A stretch of DNA of 28,285 nucleotides. It comes from Methanobacteriota archaeon. GTDB lineage: Archaea; Halobacteriota; Methanosarcinia; Methanosarcinales; Methanogasteraceae. The position numbers and the translations under genes are program-made. The notes under the pieces are model-generated. The model made no database searches. It saw only the letters and a list, made by a program, of their open reading frames with translations, and had not been told where the DNA came from. Below, piece by piece: positions 316-27,616 of this stretch (its first letter is position 1; each line of letters opens with the position of its first letter). The stretch covers positions 1 through 28,285 of the forward strand of contig JAYEGG010000347.1 of assembly GCA_034658995.1 (NCBI GenBank), given 5' to 3'.

Positions 316-1266
316 TCACACCGACCCAGCCCCCCAGAGCATCATAATCACAGCGAAATCGCTCACTGCAATTGACAAAAACAACGCAATCGCCACCCTT
401 AGCCCAAGTTTCGAGCCAAAGAATGCGACGTTGTACGGTATCAGCGTGTGGAAGATCTCGAAGAGATTGTATATGAACATCCCGACGATGAGCCCCATGA
501 ATGCATCCGTCAAACCGAGTCCGTTCACGATTAGCTGTTGTGCCATTGAGAAGGCGACAATGATGTTGAACGCGCCTGTGATTGCGATTGGCATCACTTC
601 AGGCTGCAATGGGAAGACCGCTGCTACCGGGCGGAGCAATTGATTTACGTAATCCATCAGATCGCTGTTCACAAGAATGTAGAGCAGAAACACCACTGGA
701 ACAAGGATCTTAAATACTGTTACAGCCATCCCGAGGCTCTCATGGAATGCATCCTTTATTCCCACTCTGAAATTCGTCTTTTCAACGGGGTGTTCGTACC
801 CGGAATCCTTGAAATTCCGGGGGAGTCGTATCATGCTGTAGCCGATACCGATAGTCGTCTGCACGATGCCGATTAATAGCCATACCACAAGGAAATAGAG
901 TCCGTTTCTCACTCCAAAGAGTCCGATTGCGATCGGTCCTGTGAAGAAGAAGACATACCATATCATCACAGGCAGTCCTCCTGCAAGTATCGCGGTTATG
1001 ACCTGCCGGTCACCGCCGAGCATGCCGTTTTTGTAGAATCCGGATAGTGTCGGGAGCGAGGATGTGATGTTGACTGCACACATCAGAAAGTAGAACGAGC
1101 AGCACTTCGGAAGCCTGCACACCTTTGTGAGCGGATCAAAGACGAACCCGAGTCTCAGCACCCACTGCCATCGTGTGGCAGCAGATGCGAGGAATAGCCC
1201 GATGTATGCGAGAAGTGCCACCCAGAATGTGAAGATGGCTCCGTCAACGATTGTTCCCGAATCCAT
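316..1266 (-). CDS. Multi-pass membrane protein, Gate/nucleoside-recognition domain family
   Basis: 316 aa with many hydrophobic segments in two similar halves; GGTGA RBS; overlaps the end of the upstream K-like gene. Family call is by overall resemblance only. Confidence 0.6.
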   Translation of the reverse strand: MDSGTIVDGAIFTFWVALLAYIGLFLASAATRWQWVLRLGFVFDPLTKVCRLPKCCSFYFLMCAVNITSSLPTLSGFYKNGMLGGDRQVITAILAGGLPVMIWYVFFFTGPIAIGLFGVRNGLYFLVVWLLIGIVQTTIGIGYSMIRLPRNFKDSGYEHPVEKTNFRVGIKDAFHESLGMAVTVFKILVPVVFLLYILVNSDLMDYVNQLLRPVAAVFPLQPEVMPIAITGAFNIIVAFSMAQQLIVNGLGLTDAFMGLIVGMFIYNLFEIFHTLIPYNVAFFGSKLGLRVAIALFLSIAVSDFAVIMMLWGAGSV

Positions 1267-2404: not shown

Positions 2405-3972
2405 TCTTGCCTCCAGACGTCGCTTACAGTCTCTTCCCAGCATTTCCTGCAGTGCAGCGTCTCTGTGAGGCACGGGAAGCGCCAGCCATCGATCGGATAA
2501 TCGTAGAACAGGAGTCGCCTATCAGACCGTCTGCCATTAACTTTCCCTGCAAGCGCCCGTGCAAGCGTTGTGATCATTGAATATGATATCCTGAAGGACG
2601 AGTACCCGTAAAAATCCGGGTTTATCGCCGGTATTCCATTGTGCTCATAAAACATCGCCCGTTCATTGTTATCCGTGAGGGTGCTGATAATCGCAAGGTC
2701 CACACCTTTAGCCGCGTTGACCTCGTCGGGCGCATCCAGATTGATTGCAACCTCACTTATCCCGAGTTCATTCGCACGTTTCGCAAGTTCATCCGCAAGC
2801 TCTGCTGTGTGCTCCTTCTTTGTTCCGAACCGTTCGAGCCATTCGGTATTGATGAATAGCTTCTTGACGGCAACTCCGATGAACTCAAGAATCTTGAGAT
2901 ACTCAATTGAGACCGGCATAGGAACCGCTACGAGAGAGAAGGTCTTGTTAGTAAATGTTCGTCTGATGTCGTCCAGTTCTGTATTCATGGTTTTTTTCGC
3001 ATCCTTTAGCATATCTTCGCACTCACCATCCAGGTTGAACTTCGATGCGATATCCCTGTAGAATTGTTCGATGCCCTCAAGCCCTGAGTACTTTACAGAT
3101 AGCGGATCGAAGAGATAATCGATTCCGTACTTTTCCTGCATGAATTGCGCAGATTTTTCGCTCCTGCGCATGAAATTGAGTTCCGCTGCGCTCATCCTTC
3201 TGATATCGCTCACAGAACAGCCCGGGAAGATGACGTTCACAGTGACGCCCATCCGCCCGAGCAGCACCGTTATCTCGTCGAGTTCCCCTTTCAGGTCCTC
3301 AAAATAGTGAAACCTCCCGAAGGTATCCAGATTTACCGAGTTTTCGATCGTATCCGCATCCTCGGTCAACTGCTCGATTAACGAGTACATCGCATCAAGC
3401 CTACCGCATCGCTCGATTCCGAAGGTGATCTCACCATCCTTCTTCCACGCATTGATCAGGTCTGTTGTAAACTCATCGATACAATCGCACCGGTCATCAT
3501 GCTCAAAGCCTGCCGAGGGTGTTGTGACGACCGCTGCATCCACCCGATCCTTCACACGTGACACCACGTTCTCGATATCATCCCCGATTATTGCGGGAAC
3601 GCACGAATTGACAACAGCGATCAATTCCGGTTTAACGCATCGATCCAGCTCTAAAATCGCTTTCTCGAGGGTCTCTTCTCCGCCGTACACGACATCAGTC
3701 TCGTTTAACTCGGTGCTGTAGACCCGCGGAGGATCTTTTCTGCCGAGCAGTTTCATCCGCAACGCATCGGTCGGAAGAAATCTCGGGAAGTATGCACAGC
3801 CCTCCGGGCTATGAACCAGAGCAACCGCATTCTCAATCTCGCCGACCGTGCATACAGCACCAAACATCTTGCAGTCGATGCTGTACTGGGTTGCCTGACT
3901 CAGCAGATTCGCATAATACATGCCCATAGTGTCAATCTTTGTGTTCATTCTTTCATCCATTCCTGTATTCAT
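2401..3972 (-). CDS. Nitrogenase component-1-like oxidoreductase, alpha/D-like subunit (D3)
   Basis: DCKMFGA, HSPEGC, STELNETDVVYGGE and NSCVPAIIGDD motifs. ATG 3972 follows a GGAGG RBS (ORF track starts at 3999). Confidence 0.9.
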   Translation of the reverse strand: MNTGMDERMNTKIDTMGMYYANLLSQATQYSIDCKMFGAVCTVGEIENAVALVHSPEGCAYFPRFLPTDALRMKLLGRKDPPRVYSTELNETDVVYGGEETLEKAILELDRCVKPELIAVVNSCVPAIIGDDIENVVSRVKDRVDAAVVTTPSAGFEHDDRCDCIDEFTTDLINAWKKDGEITFGIERCGRLDAMYSLIEQLTEDADTIENSVNLDTFGRFHYFEDLKGELDEITVLLGRMGVTVNVIFPGCSVSDIRRMSAAELNFMRRSEKSAQFMQEKYGIDYLFDPLSVKYSGLEGIEQFYRDIASKFNLDGECEDMLKDAKKTMNTELDDIRRTFTNKTFSLVAVPMPVSIEYLKILEFIGVAVKKLFINTEWLERFGTKKEHTAELADELAKRANELGISEVAINLDAPDEVNAAKGVDLAIISTLTDNNERAMFYEHNGIPAINPDFYGYSSFRISYSMITTLARALAGKVNGRRSDRRLLFYDYPIDGWRFPCLTETLHCRKCWEETVSDVWRQE

Positions 3973-4009
3973 TTGTATCAATCCCCTCCCAGGGGACATT
4001 TCTCACTCG

Positions 4010-4051
4010 CAAACTTTTCACCAAACTTTTCACAAAAGTTTGATCAAAAAC
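4010..4051. repeat. Perfect 9-bp hairpin with a 12-bp tandem duplication (REP-like or terminator-like)
   Basis: CAAACTTTT-CAC-AAAAGTTTG at 4022-4042; CAAACTTTTCAC repeated at 4010-4021 and 4022-4033. Confidence 0.6.
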
Positions 4052-4204
4052 TGGTCTCCGACCGGGGGCAGTTTTTACCCGATTTTTTGTGGAAAATAGC
4101 TGATTCTGATGGATTCTGTGGTTTTTTAGAGGATACCAAAAGAAGGGTTTTTTCATTCTTTGCGCCATCGCGTTCCTCTGATATATACGTGACACCGGCA
4201 TAAA

Positions 4205-4483
4205 CTGCGCCCTCGCGCCTTTGCGTTCTCGATTTAACGCGAAGGGGATCATCTCGGCCATCACGTCCTTCATGTTGTGGTCATCCAACCAACCATCAAA
4301 AAAGCTCAATTTGTGGCGGTGCGAAGTATAACGCAAGGTCGCAAAGTCGCAGAGGCGCAAAGACGATAGAGTGACGCCTGCAATCACTACAACGTGATGA
4401 CTACCGATAGCGATCACAGAGGACAATAGAGAGCACAGAGTCTTTAGATCGATCCTCTGTGTCCCTCTGTGCGCCATGTGGTT
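4205..4483. repeat. Cluster of REP-like imperfect palindromes
   Basis: 4205-4227 ctgcgccctcgcgcctttgcgtt is inversely related to 4330-4362 aacgcaaggtcgcaaagtcgcagag. 4415-4440 cacagag..cacagag pairs with 4455-4483 ctctgtg..ctctgtg..gtggtt. Confidence 0.6.
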
Positions 4484-4551
4484 GTATTTCCTAATGACAT
4501 TATTTATGTCAGTCGTGGTGTTGCGCATCCAACTGACCATTACAGAAAAAT

Positions 4552-5268
4552 TCACTTTTTCGCACCTATCAAAAAATAGCCATTACTATCGATATCGCCA
4601 CACATTCTTGAGAGAACGCCGCTTATCCTCTCTTTTATTGAGGTGTCAACATGCATAATCTCGCATCCGCAGTCTTCCAGAACTTCCCTTGCGAAGTCCA
4701 GGTTGATTTTGGGGTTGCCCCCGGTCGTCCCTCGTATCACCTTCCAGGTCTGGGCGTGATCCGCACCATTGAGGCGTTTGATTGCGCTGTATGCACGATA
4801 GATCAGTTTTGTTCGAAGGGCCATCGCATATTTGGTCTGCTTCCGGTCAACCTCGAGTATGGCGATCGTGCCGTCCTTTTTTGTGACTCTCACCATCTCT
4901 CGCATCGCCTCTTCAGGGTCTGGAACCGGCCAGAGCGCAAACTTGCAGAGTGTGCCATCAAAGACCTGATCCTTATACGGAATTTGCCCGCTATCGGCAT
5001 GCACCGCGGAAATATCGTTACCTGATTCCTTCGCCCGCACCTGCACCCGGTCCAGCATCGACCTTGAGAAATCGAGCGAATGGACCCGAAACTGCGTTGA
5101 GAGCGGAAGGGAGATTGATCCGGCGCCGCAGCCAACATCAAGAAGCGTGCCGCCCTCGTTAAAGAGATCCCGCACGGCTGCCACGTAGACATCATCCCGT
5201 ATCCACAACCGTCTCGTGATCTTCTTTGAATCGTAGCTGTCAACGAGAGCGTCCCATGGGGATGTCAT
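4552..5268 (-). CDS. Class I SAM-dependent methyltransferase (UbiE/Methyltransf_11-like)
   Basis: Motif I LLDVGCGAG, LDFS acidic motif, FDGTLC and AMREMVRV; ATGA overlap with the upstream methyltransferase. Confidence 0.9.
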   Translation of the reverse strand: MTSPWDALVDSYDSKKITRRLWIRDDVYVAAVRDLFNEGGTLLDVGCGAGSISLPLSTQFRVHSLDFSRSMLDRVQVRAKESGNDISAVHADSGQIPYKDQVFDGTLCKFALWPVPDPEEAMREMVRVTKKDGTIAILEVDRKQTKYAMALRTKLIYRAYSAIKRLNGADHAQTWKVIRGTTGGNPKINLDFAREVLEDCGCEIMHVDTSIKERISGVLSRMCGDIDSNGYFLIGAKK

Positions 5269-6023
5269 CGCTTTTCACCATTGATAAGGAAGATCAGTTC
5301 GCCGTATCCGGTGATCTTCTGCATGAGTCTTGCAAGTCTTGTTGAGACGCGATCAACGATTGAATAATCAACATCGTCCACCGCAATACCGCAATCTTCG
5401 AGCCAGCCCCTGATCTTCACGGATGAGGTGTCGATTTTATGATACTTTCTCATCTCCTTAAAATGCCGGTTCGGATCTCTTCCGGTTCGGGTCTTGTAGT
5501 AAAATCCCTGAACCCTGTAAAACGGCGTTCCGATGATTTTCTGCCGGAGTGTCGGTTTGTTGCCCTCGTACCAGTCACCTTCGACGATGACGATCTTCTT
5601 CTTTGCAACCCGTACCATCTCCGAAATTCCGTGCTTTGGATTCGGGAGTGGCCAGACCGCATACCGACATATCACGGCATCGAAGCTATCATCCTTAAAC
5701 GGCATATTCTGGGTATCTGCATTGACAATCTCGGGATCCACTTGCATCTCGTGCTTTCGAACCGTCATCTGCTGTAGCATCTTTCCGGAGAAATCAAGAG
5801 ACGTCACATCGAACTCCTTTGATAGCGGGAGCGACAGTGCGCCTGCGCCGCAGCCAACATCAAGAATCTTCTTGCAACCAGCGATTCTTGGTACTATCTC
5901 TTTTGTCCAGGTCTCGGGACTGCTGTGGTACCACTTCCGGTTCTTAAGATCGTACTCGGGTGCGAGCTTGCCCCAGCATTCCGCAATCGTCTTCACATCA
6001 GTCATATCAGTCATAGCAGTCAC
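5265..6023 (-). CDS. Class I SAM-dependent methyltransferase (paralog of 4552-5268)
   Basis: ILDVGCGAG, SLDFS, PFKDDSFDAVIC and ISEMVRV motifs; start may be a nearby downstream ATG such as 6014. Confidence 0.9.
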   Translation of the reverse strand: MTAMTDMTDVKTIAECWGKLAPEYDLKNRKWYHSSPETWTKEIVPRIAGCKKILDVGCGAGALSLPLSKEFDVTSLDFSGKMLQQMTVRKHEMQVDPEIVNADTQNMPFKDDSFDAVICRYAVWPLPNPKHGISEMVRVAKKKIVIVEGDWYEGNKPTLRQKIIGTPFYRVQGFYYKTRTGRDPNRHFKEMRKYHKIDTSSVKIRGWLEDCGIAVDDVDYSIVDRVSTRLARLMQKITGYGELIFLINGEKR

Positions 6024-6030
6024 ATCCTGG

Positions 6031-6924
6031 TCACGCCGGCTCTCCCTCGTGTTTCAGACGGGTTCTCTCCCTGATCTTTTGAGCAAGTTCCGCCAGCTTC
6101 TCATCTGTTAGCGGCGTTGGTGAGACCTGGTCCGTATTGTTGAGGACGTTTCTGGCAAGAGTTCTGAACGATTCTGCCATCTCTGACTCTGGTTCTCTCT
6201 CGATAACGGTCTGTGCATAAATTTCAGACTCAGTAATCGAATAGGAACTCTTAACCGCCCCTATGACCCGTGATCCGATCTCGCCTGCGAATTCTTCCAC
6301 GAGGCTGATATCGTCCAGGAGACCACGCACATTATAGATGATGCCGCCCAGCCGGGTTCCGTTCCGGTCCGAATACCTGTGAATCCCTTTGCAGATGTTG
6401 TTTGCGGCAAATACCGCGAGATAGTCGGAGGAGGTTACGAGTATGACCTGATCTGCAAATCCTTTTCTCAGGTTTATCCCGAAACCACCGCATACGATGT
6501 CGCCGAGGATGTCGTAGAGGATTACGTCAGGCGCAAGATCGTCCACAACAATTCTGTGGATCAGGTCGATTGCAAGCGATACGCCCCGTCCCGCACACCC
6601 GACCCCGGGCTCAGGACCGCCCACCTCGATGCAGGAAATGCCGTTAAAACCTTCTTGCACGATATCTTCAGCTTTGATCTCCTTCCCGTAAACAAATTCG
6701 CCGAGCTCAAGTGGGGCGGACGTCTTTTCTGAAAGTGTCCTGGAAACGGTCGGCATAATAATGTCGCCCCGCAGATTCCGGGTGCAATCTGATTTCGGAT
6801 CACACCCGACAACGAGGACTTTTGCTCCGTCTTCAGCCAGTGCGGACGCGATGTTGGAGACTGTGGTTGACTTTCCTATGCCACCTTTTCCGTAGAATGC
6901 GATCTGTCTGACGTTCTTTTTCAT
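6031..6924 (-). CDS. nifH: NifH/CfbC/BchL-family ATP-dependent reductase (H2)
   Basis: [10 protein letters not shown]-loop, CDPKSD, GGPEPGVGCAGRG and DIVCGGF, so both [4Fe-4S] Cys are present. ATG 6924 follows AGGAG. This is a nifH-like paralog, not a bona fide nitrogenase Fe protein. Confidence 0.93.
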   Translation of the reverse strand: MKKNVRQIAFYGKGGIGKSTTVSNIASALAEDGAKVLVVGCDPKSDCTRNLRGDIIMPTVSRTLSEKTSAPLELGEFVYGKEIKAEDIVQEGFNGISCIEVGGPEPGVGCAGRGVSLAIDLIHRIVVDDLAPDVILYDILGDIVCGGFGINLRKGFADQVILVTSSDYLAVFAANNICKGIHRYSDRNGTRLGGIIYNVRGLLDDISLVEEFAGEIGSRVIGAVKSSYSITESEIYAQTVIEREPESEMAESFRTLARNVLNNTDQVSPTPLTDEKLAELAQKIRERTRLKHEGEPA

Positions 6925-6940
6925 TTTTATCAACTCCTAC

Positions 6941-8203
6941 TCATATATTCATATCCATTAAATTATTCAACACGAGTTCTGTCAGGTTAATAACGCCCCT
7001 GAAACCTGTGATCGGATAATCCGAGATTGTGACCCGATCAATTGTGGGATAGAAGACCTTTGTCAGAGGAATGCGGTTTTCTCTGCAGAATGCACCTTCT
7101 CCGGATGATCCCATCATAAGTTCGATATCCATCGATCCAAGGACTTCATCCAGATACAGCCGATCATCAACCTTCAAAAATTCATCGAAGTAATCCCCAT
7201 CCTGCCTCCTGATAGTCTCGGCATTAATCGATGTAGACGCAAGCAGCTTCACATCAAGACAGAGTTCATCATTTAAGAATCTGGCAAGGTCAAACGCCCT
7301 TCCACTCTCTCCTACAACCGCGGTTTTCAGATTGAAGATCCCCTCCAGAAGTCCGTAAACTCGTGTTATCCGTTCCCTGACGAGATCTTTCTCAGCTTCG
7401 ATGACACGCTCATCCATCTCGCATCCAAGCGAACCCGCAATCGCTTCAAGGAATTCAATTGAACCTCTCATGCCAAATGGATGCGGGACTACAATGTAGG
7501 GGATATCGAAGAGTTCTTCCATCTTCTGTGCAAGCCCGATACCTTCGCCACCGATAACAACGTTTAACTCAGACCCGGGAGCGTTCTTCAGGGATTCAAA
7601 CGTATCGCAGGAAAAAACAGCGTTTACCGTGATTCTCTGATCATTTAACATCCGCTTGATCTCGATCAGGTCGCTTGAAGCATAAGGATCATCGGATTTT
7701 ATCCCGATCAGATTTATTCCGCTCCTGTGCCCATCACCACCATCCACCATATAATCGCATAAGCTCAACAGAGCCATATCATAGCCGAGTGATGCGTTTT
7801 TGACATGATTCGGGCAGGATAATGCGAGAATTGGGATGGGAATCTTCTCGTTCATCTGCATGATCACGCCCTCCACATCATCGCCCATCATCAGAGGAAC
7901 AGATGTCACCAGAATGCTGATTAAGGAGGGCTTGAACTGCTCATAAGTGGCTGCAAGTGAGAGACCAAGCTTGTGATGACCGCCTGTGGATATGTCTCGC
8001 AGCCTCAATCCGCCACCGGTCAGCCGGATATTGCTGTGACCTCCGGTCATCAGCCTGTACAGGAAATTGTCAGAATGACAGCAACTTCGCCCATGAACGA
8101 TCGTCATTGCATCCTTAATACCACCAAAAGCCCTTATGGCTCCGTTGAGCCTCATATCAATCGGTGGTTCGATGGCATAGCTCATTTCGACTTTTTCAGC
8201 CAT
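6941..8203 (-). CDS. Nitrogenase component-1-like beta/K-like subunit (K2)
   Basis: HGRSCCH, MMGDDV, INLIG and P-x-x-G-F-R-G C-terminal motif; ATG 8203 follows GGAGG. Confidence 0.88.
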   Translation of the reverse strand: MAEKVEMSYAIEPPIDMRLNGAIRAFGGIKDAMTIVHGRSCCHSDNFLYRLMTGGHSNIRLTGGGLRLRDISTGGHHKLGLSLAATYEQFKPSLISILVTSVPLMMGDDVEGVIMQMNEKIPIPILALSCPNHVKNASLGYDMALLSLCDYMVDGGDGHRSGINLIGIKSDDPYASSDLIEIKRMLNDQRITVNAVFSCDTFESLKNAPGSELNVVIGGEGIGLAQKMEELFDIPYIVVPHPFGMRGSIEFLEAIAGSLGCEMDERVIEAEKDLVRERITRVYGLLEGIFNLKTAVVGESGRAFDLARFLNDELCLDVKLLASTSINAETIRRQDGDYFDEFLKVDDRLYLDEVLGSMDIELMMGSSGEGAFCRENRIPLTKVFYPTIDRVTISDYPITGFRGVINLTELVLNNLMDMNI

Positions 8204-9671
8204 AGAGACAACCTCCATCGCCGCCCTGTGTGATTGAGCGCCATATAAGCCCCAACCGCTTCCATTCCGGTATCAGGGTGGGCTCGTGAGTGTCCTTCTC
8301 AATCATGCTTGTGAGCGGATACCGCTTGAGACTGGTATTAAGCGCATCAATGATCGATTCAGCCAGAACCCTTGTGGAATCAAAACCGATCACCATGGAC
8401 TGCATGAGAAACGCAGTTCCACTAAAGCCCCTGATGCCTTCCGCATTGTAGCGTGCAATTCCGCCGTTGGATAAGACAAGGTCAACTCCGAGGTCTTTAA
8501 ATATGCGAATCTCCTCTTCAGGAGTTGGTTCTCTCAAGATCTTCGGCTCGCATCCGTATCTTCTGGCTGCCTCGATATCCATCTCGATTAACTGCTCATA
8601 AGCCGCATCGCTCATCCCGTGGCTCTTCATGAAGAACGAACGGTAGCTGATCGCTTCAAGCACCATCCCAAGATCCCGCATCATGATTATGCCAGGTCCA
8701 AGAGATAAACCATCGAGAACTGCAATTTTAATGCCTTTGAGCTTATCTCTTAGTTCCATATTATTTTTCATGGCTTCTTTCTTCTTCGCGTCCACCAGAT
8801 TCACTGCCGAGCTACCTAGATCAAGACGTTTAACGATCTCAAGAAGAAACCTGGCTGCACCTGTGGTTCCGAAAGGATTGCTCAAATCCGGATCCGAACC
8901 AAACGATAGGGCTGCTAAGTAATCGATTCCGAAATGATCCTTCATCCGCTCCACCCATGGCGAGGGGGTATCAACGATGTTCAGTTCAGCTTTCGGCAAT
9001 TCGTAGATATCGGATAGATGCGTGTTCCGGAAACAGACCTGATTTATCACAACGCCCATCTCCTTAAGAACACTGATTATCCCTGTGAACTTGTTCTCGC
9101 TTGCACCTATCGGGAAGTTGATGAGGTTGACCGATCCCTTGATTGTTTTAAACGGCGCCTTTGGCAGCATCAACTGCTCTACAATTGAGACCATAACGTC
9201 GTGATAGCCGATCGGTCGTCCCTGAATCATCTCTCCGGTTGAATAGATCACCTCACAGCCAACCTCTCTCTTCGCATTATCAACAATTCCCGCGAGGTCG
9301 TCACAGATCATGTCGCTGGGGCAGGTCGGGATGACCACAATCAGTGCAGGTTTCAGCCGATTGTACAGATCGATTATGCCACGATGCAGTCTGGTCTCAC
9401 CGCCGAGAACTAGATCGATCTCGGAGAGATCTGTGCACGGGGTACGGGACGCGGGACCTGACGTTGCAAATGAGTTCATCTGGCGCAGGCTGGCGCACCC
9501 GGCTGGTCCGTGAATCAGGGGGATCGCATCCTTAATTCCGCTGACCGCCATCAGTGCGCCGGCATTCTTCGCAGGCATCGATGCTATGCCGTGAACGAGC
9601 ATCGCTGCTGGCTGATACATCCGTGCCCGCACGTTAGAGCGGCAGATCTCGCCAGTTTCGGTTTTATTCAT
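8196..9671 (-). CDS. Nitrogenase component-1-like alpha/D-like subunit (D2)
   Basis: HGPAGC, TPCTDLSEIDLVLGGE and PTCPSDMICDD motifs; AGGAG RBS. Confidence 0.9.
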   Translation of the reverse strand: MNKTETGEICRSNVRARMYQPAAMLVHGIASMPAKNAGALMAVSGIKDAIPLIHGPAGCASLRQMNSFATSGPASRTPCTDLSEIDLVLGGETRLHRGIIDLYNRLKPALIVVIPTCPSDMICDDLAGIVDNAKREVGCEVIYSTGEMIQGRPIGYHDVMVSIVEQLMLPKAPFKTIKGSVNLINFPIGASENKFTGIISVLKEMGVVINQVCFRNTHLSDIYELPKAELNIVDTPSPWVERMKDHFGIDYLAALSFGSDPDLSNPFGTTGAARFLLEIVKRLDLGSSAVNLVDAKKKEAMKNNMELRDKLKGIKIAVLDGLSLGPGIIMMRDLGMVLEAISYRSFFMKSHGMSDAAYEQLIEMDIEAARRYGCEPKILREPTPEEEIRIFKDLGVDLVLSNGGIARYNAEGIRGFSGTAFLMQSMVIGFDSTRVLAESIIDALNTSLKRYPLTSMIEKDTHEPTLIPEWKRLGLIWRSITQGGDGGCLYG

Positions 9672-9702
9672 TTAATTAAGACTCCTATGATATATATACA
9701 TA

Positions 9703-9711
9703 TATTTATAA
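9703..9711 (-). promoter_or_regulatory. Possible TATA box (TTATAAATA) at the MITE junction upstream of D2
   Basis: Minus strand reads TTATAAATA about 30 nt upstream of the ATG at 9671; it spans the element end and the flank. Confidence 0.35.
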
Positions 9712-9941
9712 CTACTCAAGTACCTAAACCACTATCGATGGACTTCGCTATGCCGGAACTACCCGGGACATGGGGCATACTGTAACCAAACACAGGATAT
9801 AACCGCAAAGTACGCAGAGGGGCGCGGAGGGAAAATAAATGGTTAAACGCTCTGTGTTCCTCTACGTCATCCGCGGTTATTTTTCTTGCCAGAAAATACA
9901 GGATCGCAATCATGAGACCGATCAACATACTTGAGTAGTTA
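9709..9941. mobile_element. MITE-like non-autonomous insertion, 233 bp
   Basis: Perfect 14-bp terminal inverted repeats TAACTACTCAAGTA (9709-9722) and TACTTGAGTAGTTA (9928-9941). Flanking direct repeat CATATATTT at 9699-9707 and 9942-9950. No transposase. Confidence 0.75.
9801..9878. repeat. REP-like imperfect palindrome inside the MITE
   Basis: aaccgc..acgcagagg..gcggag (9801-9829) pairs with ctctgtg..cctctacgt..gcggtt (9850-9878). Confidence 0.6.
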
Positions 9942-9951
9942 CATATATTTT

Positions 9952-10971
9952 TCATGTCACTCTAACCTCTCTTACTCCCTTTCGCAATAGGAGATACATG
10001 AGGAACGGGAGACCCATCACTACGGTCACCCCGCCCACCGGTGTGATAAGCGGTGCAATAACTGTTCTTGCCACCAGGTCCGATCCAAGCAGAAGTACCG
10101 CACCAACAAGTCCGGATACCGGAATTACAAACCTGTGATAATCTCCGATGACCCAACGACAGATATGCGGAGCCAGTAGCCCGATGAATCCGATCGTTCC
10201 TGTGAAGCAGACCGTGGTTGCGGTAAGAAGACTCGCAACAACCATTGCATAAGTTCTGGTACGCCTCTCGTCTGCACCGAAGAGTGGTGGCAGGATGATT
10301 GGCAGGAGTAGGAGAATCGCGCAGAGTACAATTGTGCCAGCCATGACTGCCAGTACGGGCCATGATGCCCTGTTGAGGTCGCCTATCATCCAGAAGACTG
10401 CTTCCTTCACAGCCTCTGCCGCACCAAAGTACATGAGGAGTCTCGTCATCACCGGACGGGAGAGGATCACTATTATAATACCTATTAATACAACCCGTTT
10501 AGGGGTTGCCCATCTGCGGCTTGAGATATAGAGGATGAACGATGTGGCGATCAGGGCAGAGACGAAGGCAGCACATAATATCAGATATTTCCCACCAACG
10601 ATGCCGGCACCTGCAAGAATTGCAAGTGAAGCACCAGATCCAGCGCTTGATGAGATTCCAAGTGTGTATGGCGAAGCAAGCGGATTTCTGAGTGCCCACT
10701 GCATGATACCACCTGCAATCCCGAGAGAGATGCCAGCCAGTATGGCAAGGACGATGCGGGGAAGCCGGAGATTCCAGACGCATACGTCTGCAAGCCAGCT
10801 CGACTCATATTGGTCCGGGAAGAACTTGTGCAGGATTGCAGAACAGGCATCATCCATAGTCATGTCCGCACCTCCAGTGGTTACGGAAATGCCCACCAGA
10901 GCAACGATTATGAGCAGGAGGAAGAGCACGAAGAATACTATCTTTCCCGTTGGCGGTTTTGACTGAGACAT
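9952..10971 (-). CDS. FecCD/BtuC-family ABC permease, divergent (shortened coupling loop)
   Basis: LRLPRI, LRNPLASPYTLGISS and GFIGLLAPH motifs; ATG 10971 follows GGAG. Confidence 0.88.
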   Translation of the reverse strand: MSQSKPPTGKIVFFVLFLLLIIVALVGISVTTGGADMTMDDACSAILHKFFPDQYESSWLADVCVWNLRLPRIVLAILAGISLGIAGGIMQWALRNPLASPYTLGISSSAGSGASLAILAGAGIVGGKYLILCAAFVSALIATSFILYISSRRWATPKRVVLIGIIIVILSRPVMTRLLMYFGAAEAVKEAVFWMIGDLNRASWPVLAVMAGTIVLCAILLLLPIILPPLFGADERRTRTYAMVVASLLTATTVCFTGTIGFIGLLAPHICRWVIGDYHRFVIPVSGLVGAVLLLGSDLVARTVIAPLITPVGGVTVVMGLPFLMYLLLRKGVREVRVT

Positions 10972-10987
10972 GATCACAATCTCCAAA

Positions 10988-11755
10988 TCACACCGGTTTC
11001 ACCGGAATGATGTACGGTCGCTCTCCGTCGCTCTTCACAAGCGCCTCCACGCCGTACGCACGCCTGATGTTCTCGGTAGTCAGAACCGATTCGGGATTGC
11101 CCGCGGCAAAGATCCTGCCTCCGTTCATCATCAGTATCCTGGTGGTGTACCTCGCGGCAAGGTTCAGGTCATGAATCGCCATCACAGCAGAGAGCTTCTT
11201 CCTGTGCACGATATTTGTCATGATCTCCATCACCTCAAGCTGATGTCTGATATCGAGGTTGCTTGTGGGCTCATCCAGCAGAAGAATGTCCGCTTCCTGT
11301 GCGAGCGCACGTGCGATCAGGACCTTCTGCTGCTGACCGCCGCTGATCTCGTTAAAGTCCCGCATCGCAAACTCCATGATCCCGAGGAGTTCCAGAATCT
11401 CCAGAACCTTGTCCACATCCTCCTCGCTACTCTTCCAACCGAGATGCGGGCGCCTTCCCATGAGAACCGTGTCAAAGACCGTCGCCGGAAAGACACGTGT
11501 TGTGGTCTGGGGCACATAACCCATCCGCTTTGCAATCTCCATTCTCGTCATATTGCTGATGTCGTTCTCATCCAGGAGTATTGTCCCTCCTCCCGGTGTC
11601 AGGATCCGGTCGATGCACCGGATCAGCGTGGATTTGCCGGCACCGTTCGGACCGACGATTCCGATTATCTCTGAGCTATCCAGATCCATGGATATGCCTT
11701 CGAGAACCAATGTGCTGTTGTAGCCGAATTCTACATTTTTTACTTTTAGTTTCAC
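10988..11755 (-). CDS. ABC ATPase, iron-chelate/cobalamin family (FepC/BtuD-like)
   Basis: Walker A GPNGAGKS, YVPQ Q-loop, ISGGQQQ signature, LLLDEPT Walker B and HDLNLA; GTGA overlap. Confidence 0.95.
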   Translation of the reverse strand: MKLKVKNVEFGYNSTLVLEGISMDLDSSEIIGIVGPNGAGKSTLIRCIDRILTPGGGTILLDENDISNMTRMEIAKRMGYVPQTTTRVFPATVFDTVLMGRRPHLGWKSSEEDVDKVLEILELLGIMEFAMRDFNEISGGQQQKVLIARALAQEADILLLDEPTSNLDIRHQLEVMEIMTNIVHRKKLSAVMAIHDLNLAARYTTRILMMNGGRIFAAGNPESVLTTENIRRAYGVEALVKSDGERPYIIPVKPV

Positions 11756-13122
11756 CAGTATTCCCTCCGCCGCCTCATTATCAGGTACAGGAAGAGTGGA
11801 GCTCCCATAAATGCCGTAACTGCCCCAACAGGTAGGATTATAGGAGCCATGATCCTTCTTGCCACAAGGTCTGCGCTGATGAGAATCACTGCACCCAAGA
11901 GACCTGAAACAGGGAGTACGTACCTGTTGTCGCCCCCGATTGCGAGCCGTGTCATGTGCGGGGCAACAAGCCCGATGAACCCGATTGTGCCTGTGAAACA
12001 GACGATTGTTGCAACCATCACTGTTGAGACAACCATCGTTAGGACCCGGGTGCGCTTCACATTCACACCAAGACTCTTCGCAGTCTCATCTCCTGCGCCC
12101 ATCACGTTTAAGTCCCAGGACTTTGCCATGAGGTATGGGGTGCAGAGAGCGATTGCAACCGACACGATCGTAACAACGGACCATGATGCCCTGTTGAGGT
12201 CGCCTACCATCCAGAAGACCGCTTCCTTGACAGCCTCTGCCTCGCCAAAGTACTGAAGAATCGTTGTCATCGCGCCGAAGAGGTACATCATCGCAATACC
12301 TGCGAGAATCATTGTTTCGGGTGTTGCTCCTTTGCGGCTCGAGAGCCCGAGGATGATGAACGCTACCAGCAGCGCGAATATGAAAGCGTTTCCGATGATA
12401 AGATATTTTCCGCCAACGATTCCTGCGCCTGCGAGAATTGCGAGTGACGCGCCGAAGCCTGCGCCTGACGAGATTCCGAGCGTGTACGGGCTTGCAAGCG
12501 GATTTCTGAGTATCGCCTGCATCACGCACCCCGCAAGTCCAAGACCGAATCCTGCCACGATTCCGAGGAAGATTCGGGGGAGCCTGAGGTTCCAGACGCA
12601 GACATCAGCAAGCCATGTTGCTTTGTGTAGGTGGAGCTCGCCGTTCACCTCTTTTATTTTAAAACCGTCAACTCTGTGACCCGGATCTATATCGCCGCTG
12701 ATTTTCACCTCCATCTTCTCTGTATCCCGGTAATCACGCGCGATTTTAACTTTATTGTCACCAACACCTTTAATGGTGATTGTACCGTCGTCAGATTTGC
12801 TGATCTCTGCGCTTTCCACCCAGCCGATGTCGTATTCAGCTATAAGGTGTTGTTTGAGTTTCTCACTATCGCTTCCTGGAACATTGTCCCATGTAAAGAG
12901 ATACGCTGACTCAAACGTATTCGGAAACGGTTTTCTGAGTATTGATGAATAAGCGTCCCAGACCGAGAGGTCTGCAGATCCGAGCGATGTGGAAACTCCT
13001 GTTATGCCAACGATCAGGACTATGAAGAGGAAGATGAAGAAGATCTTCCGTCCGATGAACTTCTTGTACTGCGTCCTGATCTCGTCCGCGGTTACTGTGG
13101 AACTCTGCTCTTCCATAGTCAT
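11752..13122 (-). CDS. FecCD/BtuC-family ABC permease with a ~96-aa soluble insert
   Basis: LRLPRI, LRNPLASPYTLG, intact DLNVMGAGDETAKSLGVN loop and GFIGLVAPH. Confidence 0.93.
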   Translation of the reverse strand: MTMEEQSSTVTADEIRTQYKKFIGRKIFFIFLFIVLIVGITGVSTSLGSADLSVWDAYSSILRKPFPNTFESAYLFTWDNVPGSDSEKLKQHLIAEYDIGWVESAEISKSDDGTITIKGVGDNKVKIARDYRDTEKMEVKISGDIDPGHRVDGFKIKEVNGELHLHKATWLADVCVWNLRLPRIFLGIVAGFGLGLAGCVMQAILRNPLASPYTLGISSGAGFGASLAILAGAGIVGGKYLIIGNAFIFALLVAFIILGLSSRKGATPETMILAGIAMMYLFGAMTTILQYFGEAEAVKEAVFWMVGDLNRASWSVVTIVSVAIALCTPYLMAKSWDLNVMGAGDETAKSLGVNVKRTRVLTMVVSTVMVATIVCFTGTIGFIGLVAPHMTRLAIGGDNRYVLPVSGLLGAVILISADLVARRIMAPIILPVGAVTAFMGAPLFLYLIMRRRREYW

Positions 13123-13128
13123 AACGCC

Positions 13129-14004
13129 CTAGTATTCTCGCCCGGTCGTCCAGTGAATCAGGGCGTCCTGCGATTTCCATTCGAGATACCGTTCACCGTT
13201 CTCCTCTATTATCCGGTCAGCTACATACTCCTGAATTGCGTCCTTCTGGTCATCAGTCATTTCGGAATCGATCTCGAGATACTCCTTCCACCGGTCATAG
13301 AGGTCGTCCATGCTTGTTATGTGCTTCTTTGCACGGGCGTTTAACATCTCGATATCCGGGTGCAGCCCGATCTCTCGGAGTACCATGTACAGGCAGGAGT
13401 AGTCAGGATATGCGGGCGCAGGTTTTCCGTGTATCCGCGCCCACAACCTCGAATGGTCCTGGGAATTGATGTTGTGAGATCCGCCGGTCAGGAGATGGAC
13501 CGAGCCACCCGAGATGTCATCCATCTTTCTGAGTGAGTGGTGCAGGTCTGTTATATAATACAAAGCGTGTGAGCAGATGACTGCGTCGTACTTCCCGGCA
13601 TTGATCCTGTGTAATTCGTGGGTTGTGACATCCTCCCACCGCTTGTTGATGTACTCGATGTTTGTGAGCCCCTCGTCTTCCGCCTTCTTCCGCAGGATAT
13701 CAAGCATCCCCCGGGAGGGTTCGACTGCAACGACCTTCTCTGCGTTTTTAGCTAACGGTATTGCGAAGACTCCTGTGCCGGCACCTACGTCCACTATGGT
13801 CTTTGGATTATGTTGCAGGATCTTCTCAACGAAGAGCGCACGGTTCGAATGTTTCATGTCGCCTTCGTATTCCGCTGCCTTCTGGTTCCACGCCTCCTCA
13901 ATAGAGCCGTAGTTTATGATGAACTGCCTGGACCATGCGTTCAGTATCCCGTCTTCCCATGTCTTCGCCCAATCAGGCTTTATTTCACAACTCAGTGCAT
14001 TCAT
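13129..14004 (-). CDS. Class I SAM-dependent methyltransferase
   Basis: [14 protein letters not shown] and YDAVICSH motifs; ATGA overlap with nifH-like H1. Confidence 0.9.
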
Positions 14005-14936
14005 TCTCGCACCTCGAGTGCATCCCGTGTCTTCCGTCTTATGCGCTGTGCAAGCCCGGACAGTTCTTCTTTTGTGAGGGGTGTTGGGGACACCCGGTCC
14101 CGGTTCTTGTAGATTTGCATCGCTGCTTCCCTGAAGACTCCAGCAATCTCAGAGTCCGGTTTGTGCTCTATTGCGGTTTTGCCGTAGATCTCGTTCTCCA
14201 TTATCATGGGGTCGCTTGGAATCGCTCCCACGACATTTGTTCCCACGCTATGTGCAAACTCCTCGACAAGCTCGCGATCATCGATTGCACCTCTCACGTT
14301 GTAGATGATGCCGCCCAGTGGGGAACCGCCCCGGTCTGCATGCCGCTGGATCCCCTTGCAGATGTTGTTTGCCGCGTAGACCGCCATATAGTCCGCGGAT
14401 GTCACGACGTAGACATCGTCGGCAAGACCGTTTCGAAGCGGCATCCCGAAGCCGCCGCATACAATGTCCCCGAGAACATCGTAGATGATCACATCGAGAC
14501 CGAGGTCAGAATAGATGCCGAGTCGTTTCAGGAGATCGACGACCACGATTACACCGCGTCCGGCACACCCGACGGCAGGTTCCGGACCTCCAGCCTCGAC
14601 ACAGAGGACTCCTTTAAATCCCTTGTATACAATCTCTTCAAGCTCAATCTGCTTGCCGCCCACAAGTTCGCCTATGCCAAGCTTGGAGACACCTTTCTCT
14701 CGTAGCACATCCAGGACGGTCGGGAGATCAGCATCGCCCCTGAGGTTCCGGGTGCAGTCCGCCTTAGGATCACAGCCGACAACCATCGTTTTAAGACCCA
14801 TATCCGCGTAAGCCGCCGCAATGTTGGACGATATCGTTGACTTGCCGATACCGCCTTTTCCGTAGAACGCGATCTGGCGCAGTCCATTTTCAGTATCCCG
14901 AGTTGATTCGGGAGTTTTCTTATCATTCATTCTCAT
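14001..14936 (-). CDS. nifH: NifH/CfbC/BchL-family ATP-dependent reductase (H1)
   Basis: [28 protein letters not shown] and DIVCGGF motifs; ATGA overlap. A nifH-like paralog. Confidence 0.93.
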
Positions 14937-16258
14937 ACCTCCATATAATTATGTATTATCGGATTTATAATATCCTCAATAAGGTTAATTGTCCCTCTGA
15001 ATCCCGCATAAGGTGAGTTAGAGATCGAAACATCGTCAAGCAACGGATAGAATGTTCTTACAAGGGGAACGTTCAATCCATGAGCCAGTTTCTTCTCCAT
15101 CGTGGAGCCAAAGACCATCCCGACTCCGCACGATCCCACTATTTCGTCCATCCTGAAGCGATCCGGCTCGACTATCAGCAGCTCCCAGTAATCATCATAC
15201 TCGGCTGCCATCTCCTGCGAGAGATGATTCCTCGAGGTTATCACGAGCACCTTCACATTGAAACCCAGCTCATCGCTCAGGAATCTGGCGAGATCAAAAG
15301 CGTGAGCCCCTTCTCCGATCACAGCAACGTCGGAATCATAGATTCCCTGTAAATGAAGGTATATCTTCTCGATCTGATCCTTGATCCACCTGCTCTCATC
15401 GTCGATCGCCTGCCGGTTCAGATCTTGCCCTACCCCGCTGGTCGCAGCCTCCAGAAAATCGGTGCTGCCGCCGACACCATATGGATAGGGCACCACAACA
15501 TACGGCACCTCGAAGCGTTCTTCCATGATTTTTGCGCATTCGAGCCCGTCTCCACCAAGCACAAGATTAAGAGATGCTCTTGGAGCGTTCTTGATCTCTT
15601 TAAAGCTGGAACTCGTGAGAACTGCGTTGATACTGATATTCTGACCGTTCAAAATCCTTCTAATCTCTGAAAGGTCAGGACCCGCCCTGACATCATCCTG
15701 TTTGAAACCGATCAGGTTCACAACCGGGTCCTGGTCCGGCGAGTTATCGGAACCATCGCTCGCAACCATGAACCGTGTGAGTTCGGAGAGGACATCCTCA
15801 TAACCCTTCCATGAGGGTCCTTCGTAGCCCCCTGTATCGAGGGCGATTGTCTCCGGCGGAATCTCAGTTGCAACTGCCGCCGCAGCACCACTCACATCAT
15901 CGCCCATGATCGCAGGAGCACTGCAGTTGAGCGTTGCGATCAATTCCGGCTTGAAATTCCCATAAGACGCACGTATAGTGCTTGCAAGCCGCCCTTCTCC
16001 ACCATATACTATATCCTGCGTCCGAAATCCACTGTTCACGAGCCTGATGTCGTTCTGATTGGAACTCAATGCCCGCAGGAGCAGGACTCCGCAGTGGCAT
16101 CCGGGTCTGGAATGGACGATTGTTACTGAGTCTGTGACTCCGCCAAGCGCTCTTGCCGCTCCGACGAGCTTACAGTCCTGGGTCGGATCATAGATCGATT
16201 CATCTTCTCCAGTAGACCCGCGTTTTGCAAAAATATCTTCCAGTAATGTGTCTTTCAT
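14933..16258 (-). CDS. Nitrogenase component-1-like beta/K-like subunit (K1)
   Basis: [34 protein letters not shown] and PYAGFRG motifs. ATG 16258 follows GGTGA; alternative GTG at 16267. Confidence 0.9.
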
Positions 16259-16263
16259 TGCAA

Positions 16264-17760
16264 TCACCGGTCACCAACCGCTTTACTCCGGATCGTGCCA
16301 AACATCTCTGCGAGCGTTGCCCAGTGCGGAGTCATGCCTGTCCTGTGCGAATCGTATTCAAGCATGCTCAAGAGTGGATTTCTCTTCCCTGGCTTTTTGA
16401 GTGCTTCCCTCATCAGCTGAGCCAGTTCGATTACGCACTCAAAACCGACCCGCTGGTGATGGAGCATGAAACTCACCGGATCGAACGTCCGTAGCCCTTC
16501 CCTGTTGTACCCGTGTGCACTTGCCGATGTTGAAATGACCATATCGGTTCCTGTTCTCTTAATCGTCCGTATCTCCTCCTCAAACGTAGGATTTACGATG
16601 ATCTCCGGATCCGATCCGTACTTGGTCGCCCATCCGCGTGTAATATTCAGAACCTCGTCGAGCGCATCATCGTCCAGGATGGTCTCCAGACCCTCGGTCC
16701 GGTACGTGATCACGCTCGCCTTCATCCCCAGATCACGCAGTAGCAACAGTTCGATTCCGTGGAGACCACCCATGCCGGAACATGCGACCTTCTTACCTGA
16801 TAGATCGGGTATTATCCTTAAAAGCTTCTTCAGCGTATCTTTTTTGCGCTTCTCGATCACTTCATCTGCCTCGCCCTCCAGTCCGAACCTGGATGCAATC
16901 TCGCGAAAGATCCTTGCGCTACCGTCGATGCCGTACGGACAGAGCAGGTCTGAGTCCCCAGTCTCCTTATACCGGTCAAATGAAACGATCTCGTAGTAAT
17001 CGATCCCGAGCCGCTCCTTCATGCGTTTCGTCCAGACCATCGGATAATCGGTTATGGTCAGTTCCGCACAAACGAGGTCACGGAGATCCGAGACAGTTGT
17101 GTGATCGAAGCAGACCTTGTTTATCCCAATACCGATCTCCTCTAAAACCGAACTCATCTCGCCGGTCCTGACCCCTGAGCCATGTATCGGGAAGGTTACG
17201 ATGTTAACTGAGTTATCAGTTCTCTCGACAGCCTCCGCGTCCGTGTTATTGCAGAGCAACTGGTCAGCGATCGCATAGAGTGCGTCCTGGTACCCGACTG
17301 GTCTTGCCCTTTCAACGAAATCGCCTGTCGTGTAGACGAGGTCACAATCCACATCCGCCCCTGCCACCTCCACAACCGACTTGAAATCATCCCCGATGAG
17401 ATCGCTTGCACATGTCGTGATCACTATGATCAGATTTGGGTGATAACGTTCGAATGTTTCCTTGATACCACGTTTCAGTTTCTCCTCGCCCCCATACACA
17501 ATATCCAGGTCATTCATGTCGGTGCACGGGGTTTCATAAAATAGGGAATGCAGCTTGAACGGGTTGAGCTTCCGCTGATATGCGCACCCGATCGGTCCGT
17601 GGATCAGGGGGACCGCGTCCGTAATAGCACCCGCGACCAGAAGCGAACCCGAGATCTTTCCAGGAATCGTGGTCATCCCGTGCAGAGGGAAGGTGCTGTA
17701 TGCATTGACAAGCGGTTTTAAGAATCCAGTTCCGTTTTCATGATTTCTTTCTTCGATCAT
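16264..17760 (-). CDS. Nitrogenase component-1-like alpha/D-like subunit (D1)
   Basis: HGPIGC, TPCTDMNDLDIVYGGEEKL and TTCASDLIGDD motifs. Confidence 0.92.
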   Translation of the reverse strand: MIEERNHENGTGFLKPLVNAYSTFPLHGMTTIPGKISGSLLVAGAITDAVPLIHGPIGCAYQRKLNPFKLHSLFYETPCTDMNDLDIVYGGEEKLKRGIKETFERYHPNLIIVITTCASDLIGDDFKSVVEVAGADVDCDLVYTTGDFVERARPVGYQDALYAIADQLLCNNTDAEAVERTDNSVNIVTFPIHGSGVRTGEMSSVLEEIGIGINKVCFDHTTVSDLRDLVCAELTITDYPMVWTKRMKERLGIDYYEIVSFDRYKETGDSDLLCPYGIDGSARIFREIASRFGLEGEADEVIEKRKKDTLKKLLRIIPDLSGKKVACSGMGGLHGIELLLLRDLGMKASVITYRTEGLETILDDDALDEVLNITRGWATKYGSDPEIIVNPTFEEEIRTIKRTGTDMVISTSASAHGYNREGLRTFDPVSFMLHHQRVGFECVIELAQLMREALKKPGKRNPLLSMLEYDSHRTGMTPHWATLAEMFGTIRSKAVGDR

Positions 17761-20338: not shown

Positions 20339-20361
20339 TATCTCCCTTTTATTCATCTTCA

Positions 20362-21615: not shown

Positions 21616-21637
21616 TACCTACTTTTTATATATCTCA

Positions 21638-26285: not shown

Positions 26286-26304
26286 TACCGTCCCTATAAT
26301 TCAG

Positions 26305-27594: not shown

Positions 27595-27616
27595 TATATG
27601 TCACCTCAAACGCTGT

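Follow-up and report, generated by a model that had tools for sequence, protein, structure and literature searches.

The window analysed here is a complete contig of 28,285 bases (C347) from a metagenome-assembled genome (MAG) of 2.1 Mb that is 75% complete. Every substantial gene in it lies on the minus strand. Its main subject is a set of nitrogenase-like (NFL) reductases, each built on a D-K pair resembling nitrogenase component 1. Two of these pairs come with an Fe protein (H) and with methyltransferases that use S-adenosylmethionine (SAM). The cassette D1-K1-H1-MT1 runs from 17760 to 13129, and D2-K2-H2-MT2a-MT2b from 9671 to 4552. Gene identities are from Pfam and NCBIfam profile searches, which gave the following for the reductases and their methyltransferases:

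16264–17760, minus strand: NflD1, nitrogenase component-1-like alpha-type subunit, 498 aa (PF00148, E 5e-56; in an archaeal-only D1 clade)
14933–16267, minus strand: NflK1, its beta-type partner, 444 aa (PF00148, E 4e-72; in a K1 clade that is sister to K2)
14001–14936, minus strand: NflH1, ATP-dependent Fe protein, 311 aa (PF00142, E 2e-98; NF009701 441 bits, cut-off 350)
13129–14004, minus strand: MT1, SAM methyltransferase of class I that has a cap domain, 291 aa (Methyltransf_25/11, above cut-off)
8196–9671, minus strand: NflD2, 491 aa (PF00148, E 1.5e-49; in a D2 clade of anaerobic methanotrophic archaea, or ANME, and Desulfobacterales)
6941–8218, minus strand: NflK2, 425 aa (PF00148, E 1e-64)
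6031–6933, minus strand: NflH2, Fe protein, 300 aa (PF00142, E 8.5e-93; NF009701 387 bits, cut-off 350)
5265–6023, minus strand: MT2a, UbiE-like class I methyltransferase, 252 aa (Methyltransf_11, E 9e-19)
4552–5268, minus strand: MT2b, UbiE-like class I methyltransferase, 238 aa (Methyltransf_11, E 3e-20)
2401–3999, minus strand: NflD3, alpha-type subunit of the third pair, which lacks its own H gene, 532 aa (PF00148, E 9.5e-51)
1244–2473, minus strand: NflK3, 409 aa (PF00148, E 4.8e-46)

An earlier note on this DNA had reported that the first two cassettes share their gene order, and the profile searches confirm this. Beyond the range of that note lie D3-K3 (3999–1244), a further methyltransferase, MT0, with a radical SAM gene (24859–23001), and the importer genes. 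Neighbouring genes overlap by 4 nt at each of the D1/K1, K1/H1 and H1/MT1 junctions, which indicates a coupled operon. The overlap of MT2a and MT2b is also 4 nt. Between the cassettes, D1 and D2 are 38% identical, K1 and K2 40%, and H1 and H2 61%.

To place the window in context, 63 related loci were fetched, using exact-protein look-ups of D1/D2 homologues and a pattern scan of species-representative genomes. Locus genes were labelled by phmmer against seeds of known Pfam content. A class I methyltransferase lies within 3.5 kb in 11 of the 12 informative sets of the D2 clade; in the twelfth it is found at 5.8 kb, after a second set. For the D1 clade the count is 12 of 22, or 13 if a fusion is included, and for a fourth clade, D4, it is 8/14. 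All eight D3 sets have one within 10 kb. The expectation by chance is roughly 10% per 8.5-kb span, which derives from the density in the genome itself: 28 Methyltransf_25 matches in 2.14 Mb, or about one per 76 kb, against four in the 28-kb contig. One point against leaning on these numbers is that the loci share ancestry, so that the counts overstate the statistics and carry no formal probability. What can be said is that methyltransferases are not absent beside most orthologous D-K-H sets, an absence that would have told against the link drawn in the earlier note. Across archaea and bacteria, MT2b travels with D2K2H2, and MT1 travels with a subclade of D1K1H1. MT1 orthologues come after H1 in four loci (L026, L029, L030, L035), and MT2b orthologues adjoin D2 sets both in ANME and in seven bacterial loci.

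In some relatives MT1 is not a separate protein at all. At one locus (L024:5745-7538), the Fe protein NflH and MT1 form a single open reading frame (ORF) of 597 aa. A length-restricted search returned four distinct variants of this 597-aa protein, 6 to 9 residues apart and originating in NCBI and Logan assemblies (the fused entries are L024, P0118, P0122, P0125 and P0126), and alongside these, closely related unfused MT1 proteins of 291 aa. Compared with the unfused L029, the DNA at the H::MT1 junction shows a 7-nt spacer change by which the stop codon is gone and the reading frame is restored. That search also gave one JGI contig (P0119, protein truncated at its 5' end) on which a K1-like C-terminus continues straight into MT1. 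The fusions are the strongest evidence that MT1 partners the reductase directly. Fusions of MT2 to reductase parts were not found; its close relatives are all at most about 270 aa.

The four methyltransferases of the window, MT0, MT1, MT2a and MT2b, all score above the Methyltransf_25/11 cut-off and conserve the DVGxGxG SAM motif. The earlier claim that they belong to different subfamilies holds up. MT1 and MT2a are 25% identical, and this only over the SAM-binding core; MT1 and MT0 are 27% identical over their full length; MT2a and MT2b reach 36%. In the methyltransferase tree, the longest internal branches part the MT2 family from the MT0/MT1 family. MT1 clade members are found in the window, L026, L029, L030, L035, the L024 fusion and the bacterial loci L011 and L012. 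MT2b is found in ANME and in bacteria, and MT2a is an ANME-only duplicate of it (window, L013, L014, L024). The MT2b family is very rare: at E<=1e-30 there are 4 clusters among 1.84 billion representative proteins, and three of these four are genes linked to the reductase cluster in the fetched loci.

Sequence and structure searches with these enzymes matched only generic small-molecule methyltransferases and yielded no assignment of a substrate. The AlphaFold2 model of MT1 (pLDDT 89.5) shows a class I methyltransferase fold, which resembles small-molecule methyltransferases at template-modelling (TM) scores of 0.5-0.6, among them ChlM, thiol S-methyltransferases and histamine N-methyltransferase. 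For ChlM taken by itself the TM score is only 0.4-0.6, and MT1 and MT2 score 28-39 bits on the BchM/ChlM model TIGR02021, where the cut-off is 158.9.

A tree of 153 D and K proteins places D and K in separate clades and resolves five D clades, D1 to D5. The D2 clade consists of ANME and Desulfobacterales bacteria, including Desulfothermus naphthae. Its sister, D1, holds only archaea: ANME-1, ANME-2, Methanothrix and one Bathyarchaeia bin. D3 spans ANME and the same bacteria as D2, and D4 and D5 are two more archaeal clades. The K and H trees repeat the relationships of D, with K1 sister to K2 and H1 sister to H2; the H2 clade takes in the first H genes of the bacterial clusters. Since the three trees agree, D-K-H was duplicated as a unit, and to this extent the duplicated cassette of the earlier note survives. 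The methyltransferases were not part of that duplication. MT1 and MT2 sit across the longest branch of their tree, and both families are present in the bacterial clusters, so that a multi-reductase cluster included them both before D1 and D2 split in archaea.

The bacterial clusters have the order TonB receptor, NifB-like radical SAM gene, MT2b, D2, K2, H2, a second H, in some cases MT1, and then D3 and K3. The MT2b tree parallels that of D2. An ANME-1 genome, CONS3730B06UFb1, has a layout matching the window on one 50-kb contig (L030 and L013): D1-K1-H1-MT1, an extra K-H-D set, and D2-K2-H2-MT2a-MT2b-Gate-D3-K3, where Gate stands for a membrane protein described below. The block D2-K2-H2-MT2-(Gate)-D3-K3 is common to ANME-1, ANME-2 and Desulfobacterales (L013, L030; L010, L012, L015, L016). 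The shared block suggests that D2-MT2b-D3 passed between the domains, in lineages that live together in seeps.

Within the order to which the window belongs, 151 species representatives were sampled. The family of the window accounts for 26 of them, 8 of which have D1-type genes; the 125 from other families have none. A D2 orthologue is present in no other genome of the sample. This patchy occurrence makes the cluster accessory. The closest public loci carry a Methanosarcinales label. In two cold-seep RNA libraries, contigs from a relative that is 90-95% identical cover K3, D3, MT2b, H2, K2, D2, the ATPase, permeases, MT1, H1 and D1. This is weak evidence that the cluster is transcribed there, given that assembled contigs may include DNA and do not prove transcription.

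The reductases themselves belong to the nitrogenase superfamily of two-component reductases. The six PF00148 genes form three adjacent pairs, and H1 and H2 are both NifH-family Fe proteins (PF00142) that exceed the cut-off of NF009701, 'nitrogenase reductase-like'. Among solved structures, D1 and D3 are matched best by NifE/NifEN, by NifD/VnfD and by 'nitrogenase' chains of 519-559 aa (E 1e-15 to 1e-21); BchN/BchB follow far behind at E 1e-5 to 1e-3. For D1 and D2, the best match in both NCBIfam and the PDB is NifE.

The earlier note had placed key residues of D1 and D2 at identical positions (34, C59, C79 and C117), and the alignment agrees. Position 34, the column of NifD Cys62, is a glycine in D1 and an alanine in D2, and not a cysteine. 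Both proteins additionally have C139, which is invariant in the family. At the three P-cluster ligand columns, K1 has C32, C57 and C115, K2 only C46/C47, D3 C43, C68 and C133, and K3 has C31, C56 and C114. Counting alpha plus beta subunits, P-cluster cysteines therefore number 3+3 in D3K3, 2+3 in D1K1 and 2+1 in D2K2, with Cys79 and Cys139 additional in D1 and D2. In a mud-volcano metagenome relative, K2 carries an 18-nt in-frame insertion of CAC/CAT codons at 7743, a run of histidines.

In alignments to solved chains, no equivalent of NifD Cys275, the ligand for FeMo-co, the iron-molybdenum cofactor, was found in D1, D2 or D3. Where the solved chain has ...LLCHRS, D1 reads ...LTITDYP... and D3 ...LNFMRRS..., and the D1/D2 family has no invariant cysteine there. 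With no cysteine at this column, D1-D3 are not nitrogenases and lack a canonical site for an M- or L-type cluster. Nor do they belong with the Group IV-C enzyme methylthio-alkane reductase (MAR), as its Cys ligand column is not conserved. Curated models of tetrapyrrole reductases stay out of reach as well, with best bits against cut-off of 119/490 for BchB, 52/268 for CfbD and 338/402 for CfbC. The same genome has separate CfbC/CfbD on contigs C435 and C250. It also has a NifB on contig C285, and no nifDK was found in the assembled part of this 75%-complete MAG.

The remaining features of the window are mostly those of an importer:

25005–28285, minus strand: three Peripla_BP_2 binding proteins (PF01497), of which the last is truncated where the contig ends
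23001–24859, minus strand: MT0 (class I, MT0/MT1 family, 24035–24859), overlapping a 349-aa radical SAM gene (profile matches)
18998–22882, minus strand: three further Peripla_BP_2 substrate-binding proteins (PF01497), with 41-49% mutual identity
17903–18982, minus strand: third FecCD permease, upstream of D1 (PF01032, E 5.5e-91)
9952–13122, minus strand: importer core between the two cassettes, made up of a FecCD permease with an insert, an ABC ATPase and a second FecCD permease (PF01032, PF00005)
9702–9948, no strand assigned: insertion resembling a miniature inverted-repeat transposable element (MITE), between the permease gene and D2, with 21-nt inverted terminal repeats
3953–4555, minus strand: ORF 'hyp200', without a family match
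316–1266, minus strand: membrane protein of seven helices that weakly matches a Gate domain (PF07670, under the cut-off at E 6e-5; about seven hydrophobic segments)

From high to low coordinates, the order is thus three binding proteins, MT0 with the radical SAM gene, a second trio of binding proteins, a FecCD permease, D1-K1-H1-MT1, the permease-ATPase-permease core, the MITE-like insertion, D2-K2-H2-MT2a-MT2b, the doubtful 200-aa ORF, D3-K3, the seven-helix protein and the start of a cohesin gene.

In the DNA run of a related strain the MITE-like element is skipped, and 9698 is joined straight to 10051. The 200-aa ORF at 3953–4555 is probably not a real, conserved pathway gene: a homologue was not found at the same position in L008, L013 and L014, a family search was also blank, and the region is variable. 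It was rejected as a member of the pathway. A very high-copy short repeat lies at about 3999-4060, within a stretch that differs between strains. Homologues of the Gate-type protein come after MT2b in L008, L013 and L014, and bacterial L016 has one as well. A role as FeoB-like permease was ruled out for it, as it has no significant similarity to real FeoB. The radical SAM gene of the window was likewise ruled out as a NifB. Its best matches are of the YydG, tungsten-cofactor maturase and MoaA types, and the NifB-like gene of the bacterial clusters is unrelated to it and to the ANME-1 type.

With three PF01032 permeases, a PF00005 ATPase and six PF01497 binding proteins, the transport genes have the make-up of a Type II ABC importer (BtuCDF/Fhu/Hmu). 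FecCD/Peripla_BP_2 importers are present in most loci. TonB receptors beside the bacterial clusters score 240 and 210 bits on a heme/hemoglobin model, or 267 and 259 bits on a vitamin B12 model, and a lower 150-167 bits on a siderophore model; all of these scores are below the curated cut-offs. CobN, ChlI-like and ChlD-like genes are present in seven loci (L002, L003, L010, L044, L045, L050, L053), D. naphthae having a complete CobN-ChlI-ChlD set. CobN is not in the window, and six CobN paralogues lie on other contigs of the same genome. The importer, receptor, chelatase and methyltransferase classes each have members that act on tetrapyrroles. Further pointers of this kind are the BchU-like methyltransferases and F420-type PPOX proteins of the ANME-1 versions, and the likeness of the MT1 model to ChlM. 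Going by these indirect resemblances, the imported substrate is probably a metal chelate and may be tetrapyrrole-like.

The contig would then be an accessory, horizontally mobile pathway with three NFL reductases. Fe protein H1 would serve D1K1 and H2 would serve D2K2, and D3K3 would presumably borrow an H. A BtuCDF/Fhu-type ABC importer with its six binding proteins would bring in a compound for the reductases and for MT1, MT2a/MT2b and MT0. The substrate or product of the ATP-driven reductions would be methylated, with MT1 docking on its reductase. The pairs of reductase and methyltransferase may perform successive or parallel steps on one scaffold. On balance, reductases and methyltransferases probably act as partners in one pathway, on a small molecule that is imported.

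That this molecule is a tetrapyrrole-type macrocycle, remodelled or dismantled by reduction and methylation, is a more tentative proposal. Such a metal-chelating scaffold, heme- or corrinoid-like, would be taken apart or remodelled, salvaging a cofactor or metal and exporting by-products. It is possible, if somewhat doubtful, that ANME and neighbouring Desulfobacterales share through inter-domain transfer an ATP-driven reduce-and-methylate pathway in which scavenged metallo-tetrapyrroles are taken apart or remodelled without oxygen. The metallo-tetrapyrroles envisaged are heme-, corrinoid- or nickel-porphinoid-like. The nitrogenase-like reductases would saturate the macrocycle and docked SAM methyltransferases would alkylate it, so that the metal is set free or a new cofactor results.

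Several observations weigh against this proposal, in whole or in part. D1-D3 have their nearer relatives among NifE/NifD/Mar-type proteins, and the tetrapyrrole reducers BchN/B or CfbD are more distant. The NifB-like gene beside MT2b in the bacterial clusters would fit C-S cleavage or other chemistry of group IV, and an Fe-S cofactor of a complex kind. For the binding proteins, the likeness to binders of iron or siderophores is about as good as that to heme binders, and a search with them gave iron/siderophore-type binders whose ligands are mixed or not known. D1 sets of the Methanothrix type (L003, L044, L045, L050, L053) have full-length CobN (1230-1393 aa), ChlI-like genes and many binding proteins, but no methyltransferase.

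Contig C193 of the same genome (L065:308-12000) has both methyltransferase families and an importer, but no reductase: one MT0/1-family gene and four or five MT2-family genes stand around paralogues of the binding protein, FecCD permease and ATPase, and two ABC exporter genes come after this block. Finally, a distant MT2 relative (L066:458-4137) adjoins a second methyltransferase, a DtxR-FeoA fusion gene and FeoB, again with no reductase, so that the rare MT2 family is tied to iron transport outside the reductase clusters too. From C193 and this relative it follows that the tie of the methyltransferases to the transport of metal chelates is no looser than their tie to the reductases. The earlier note had methylation mechanistically linked to reduction. 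Synteny in ANME-1, ANME-2 and Desulfobacterales and the NflH::MT1 and K::MT1 fusions bear out a link. Because C193 lacks a reductase, however, the link may run via a common substrate, and the coupling is perhaps not obligatory.

Among other explanations, the one that fares best, while still unlikely, is that of a biosynthetic cluster. A modified tetrapyrrole-derived or other small molecule would be made from an endogenous precursor, as a new cofactor or as a secreted metallophore that leaves through ABC exporters and is re-imported metal-loaded via FecCD. The ANME-1 versions do look like natural-product clusters, with 3-5 methyltransferases including BchU-like ones (TIGR02716, 55 bits), F420-type PPOX proteins, cupins, TPR proteins, radical SAM genes, 2-3 ABC-2 exporters and an importer. 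Nine loci from ANME-1 and Methanosarcinales (L001, L005, L006, L007, L019, L032, L041, L058, L060) have BchU-like Methyltransf_2 genes, PPOX, cupin, a TPR protein and several ABC-2 exporters, along with an extra D4-K-H set upstream of the D1 set. In some ANME-1 and Methanosarcinales sets such Methyltransf_2 enzymes are the only methyltransferases close by. C193 also combines methyltransferases with importer and ABC exporters, and biosynthesis is the role of the tetrapyrrole reducers that are known, DPOR, COR and CfbCD (PMC13474568). Yet a scaffold-forming enzyme is found in none of the clusters, and the window has no exporter. Both the TonB receptors and the arrays in which up to 8 divergent binding proteins stand in tandem suggest scavenging of varied external compounds, and the patchy occurrence within the order also speaks against biosynthesis.

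An improbable option is bond cleavage of the group IV type, as in MAR and ISR. Here an organic compound would be imported and its C-S bond, or one like it, cut with a NifB-derived cluster, after which methyltransferases would cap the freed thiol or nucleophile. This would suit the nearness of D1-D3 to NifE/NifD/Mar-type chains, and the NifB-like gene, which is translationally adjacent to MT2b in 7 bacterial loci. That gene is short, and in L010 (8476-9306) overlaps the start of MT2b; equivalents are in L011, L012 and L015-L018. It scores 274 bits on TIGR01290, with a cut-off of 344, and was seen in the bacterial homologous clusters only; this genome does have its NifB on C285. The fold of MT1 is also like that of the thiol S-methyltransferases TmtA and GtmA, and sulfur acquisition has been linked to group IV systems (PMC13753814). 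Opposed to all this, the catalytic-cluster cysteine of NifD (Cys275) or MarD (Cys270) is missing in D1, D2 and D3. Pfam and NCBIfam searches found no NifB or sulfur genes among those of the window, and sulfur-assimilation genes are in none of the loci. The importers are of the chelate (FecCD) type, and not of a sulfonate or thioether type, and Group IV-A/D/E/F systems tested by others had no MAR activity (PMC13753814).

Less probable again is cofactor maturation, where NifEN-like D-K scaffolds and their NifH-like partners would prepare, for some other enzyme, a cluster derived from NifB, with the methyltransferases acting on that cluster or its organic ligand. NifE being the best match of D1 and D2 is in its favour, as is the NifB adjoining the bacterial clusters, and L-clusters have been reported for methanogens, both in Mtr and in the complex that activates MCR (bioRxiv 10.64898/2026.07.03.736320). 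The Desulfobacterales, however, carry the cluster without having Mtr or MCR. A patchy distribution within ANME-2c misfits an essential maturase, the steady tie to importers and receptors is left without explanation, and a target enzyme is not encoded nearby. Finally, it is highly improbable that there is no functional link, with the methyltransferases as passengers of a long operon or serving the importer substrate independently of the reductases: C193 and the Methanothrix-type sets would allow this, but the H::MT1 and K::MT1 fusions, the 4-nt overlap joining H1 and MT1, and an MT2b-D2 adjacency kept across domains though the gene order was rearranged all speak against it.

A literature search found no paper describing this cluster or the pairing of NFL reductases with methyltransferases. 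ANME comparative-genomics papers treat only true nitrogenase and CfbCD. A 2026 mBio study did not find MAR activity outside Group IV-C (PMC13753814). A report on Group VI takes neighbouring radical SAM genes as grounds for predicting tetrapyrrole reduction, and says nothing of methyltransferases. According to a 2026 Chem Rev review, Groups IV-D, IV-E and VI are uncharacterised and gene context has so far been of little help; finding the functions of the many uncharacterised nitrogenase-like systems is among the greatest challenges of the field (PMC13474568). The present cluster has an unusually rich gene context, with specific methyltransferase partners and natural fusions that predict a physical complex. 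It has a dedicated importer, whose binding proteins could be used to fish for the substrate. The Desulfobacterales versions, including that in the isolate-derived genome of Desulfothermus naphthae, may be more tractable than ANME. Should the substrate be a scavenged tetrapyrrole or metal chelate, this would bear on the supply of iron, nickel or cobalt cofactors to methane-oxidising consortia in sulfidic sediments, and also on the anaerobic fate of porphyrins.

Nitrogenase-like reductases as such are not new. The Group IV systems NflHDK and NflBHDK (PMC13474568) similarly pair an ATP-dependent NifH-like Fe protein with a NifD/NifK-like heterotetramer that lacks the FeMo-co ligands. They also resemble the present cluster in the cysteines at P-cluster positions (full in D3K3, partial in D1K1) and in the NifB-like gene of the bacterial versions. 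What differs here is that FecCD/TonB chelate importers take the place of sulfur genes, that there are two to four paralogous D-K-H sets per cluster, that dedicated class I methyltransferases are present, some of them fused to H or K, and that D1/D2 have Cys79 and Cys139 as family-specific invariant residues. CfbCD (Group IV-B), from the synthesis of coenzyme F430, is likewise a nitrogenase-like reductase that acts on a tetrapyrrole in methanogens and ANME. However, CfbD is a homomeric partner without a K subunit, unlike the D-K pairs described here, and on the CfbC model H1 and H2 score 338 and 316 bits, under the cut-off of 402.

In the bacteriochlorophyll pathway, BchM, BchU and the BchHID chelatase work alongside two nitrogenase-like reductases. 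DPOR (BchLNB) and COR (BchXYZ) act successively on one macrocycle. They are accompanied by SAM methyltransferases of class I (BchM) and of the Methyltransf_2 type (BchU), by radical SAM enzymes, and by a chelatase of the CobN family that has AAA+/VWA partners. Each of these classes has homologues in the related clusters. Yet D and K are far below the cut-offs for BchN/B/Y/Z, MT1 and MT2 reach 28-39 bits where BchM requires 159, the hosts are non-phototrophic anaerobes, and the importers and receptors imply an external substrate.

Anaerobic use of heme by ChuW/ChuY proceeds by SAM-dependent (radical SAM) methylation, followed by reduction. HmuS achieves such use by import and a CobN-like de-chelatase (PMC12583661). 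The likenesses to these systems are the import of a tetrapyrrole through a TonB receptor or type II ABC importer, a CobN-like protein with AAA+/VWA partners (in L010), and the employment of both SAM-dependent methylation and reduction, with iron freed without oxygen. Unlike ChuW/ChuY, the cluster has no ChuW-type (HemN-like) enzyme, and its reductases are ATP-driven nitrogenase-like complexes instead of flavoproteins. Compared with HmuS, CobN is missing from the window itself, the six paralogues being elsewhere in the genome. If the metallo-tetrapyrrole reading were true, the cluster would add to HmuS and ChuW a third anaerobic route, and would provide a first function for this nitrogenase-like clade.

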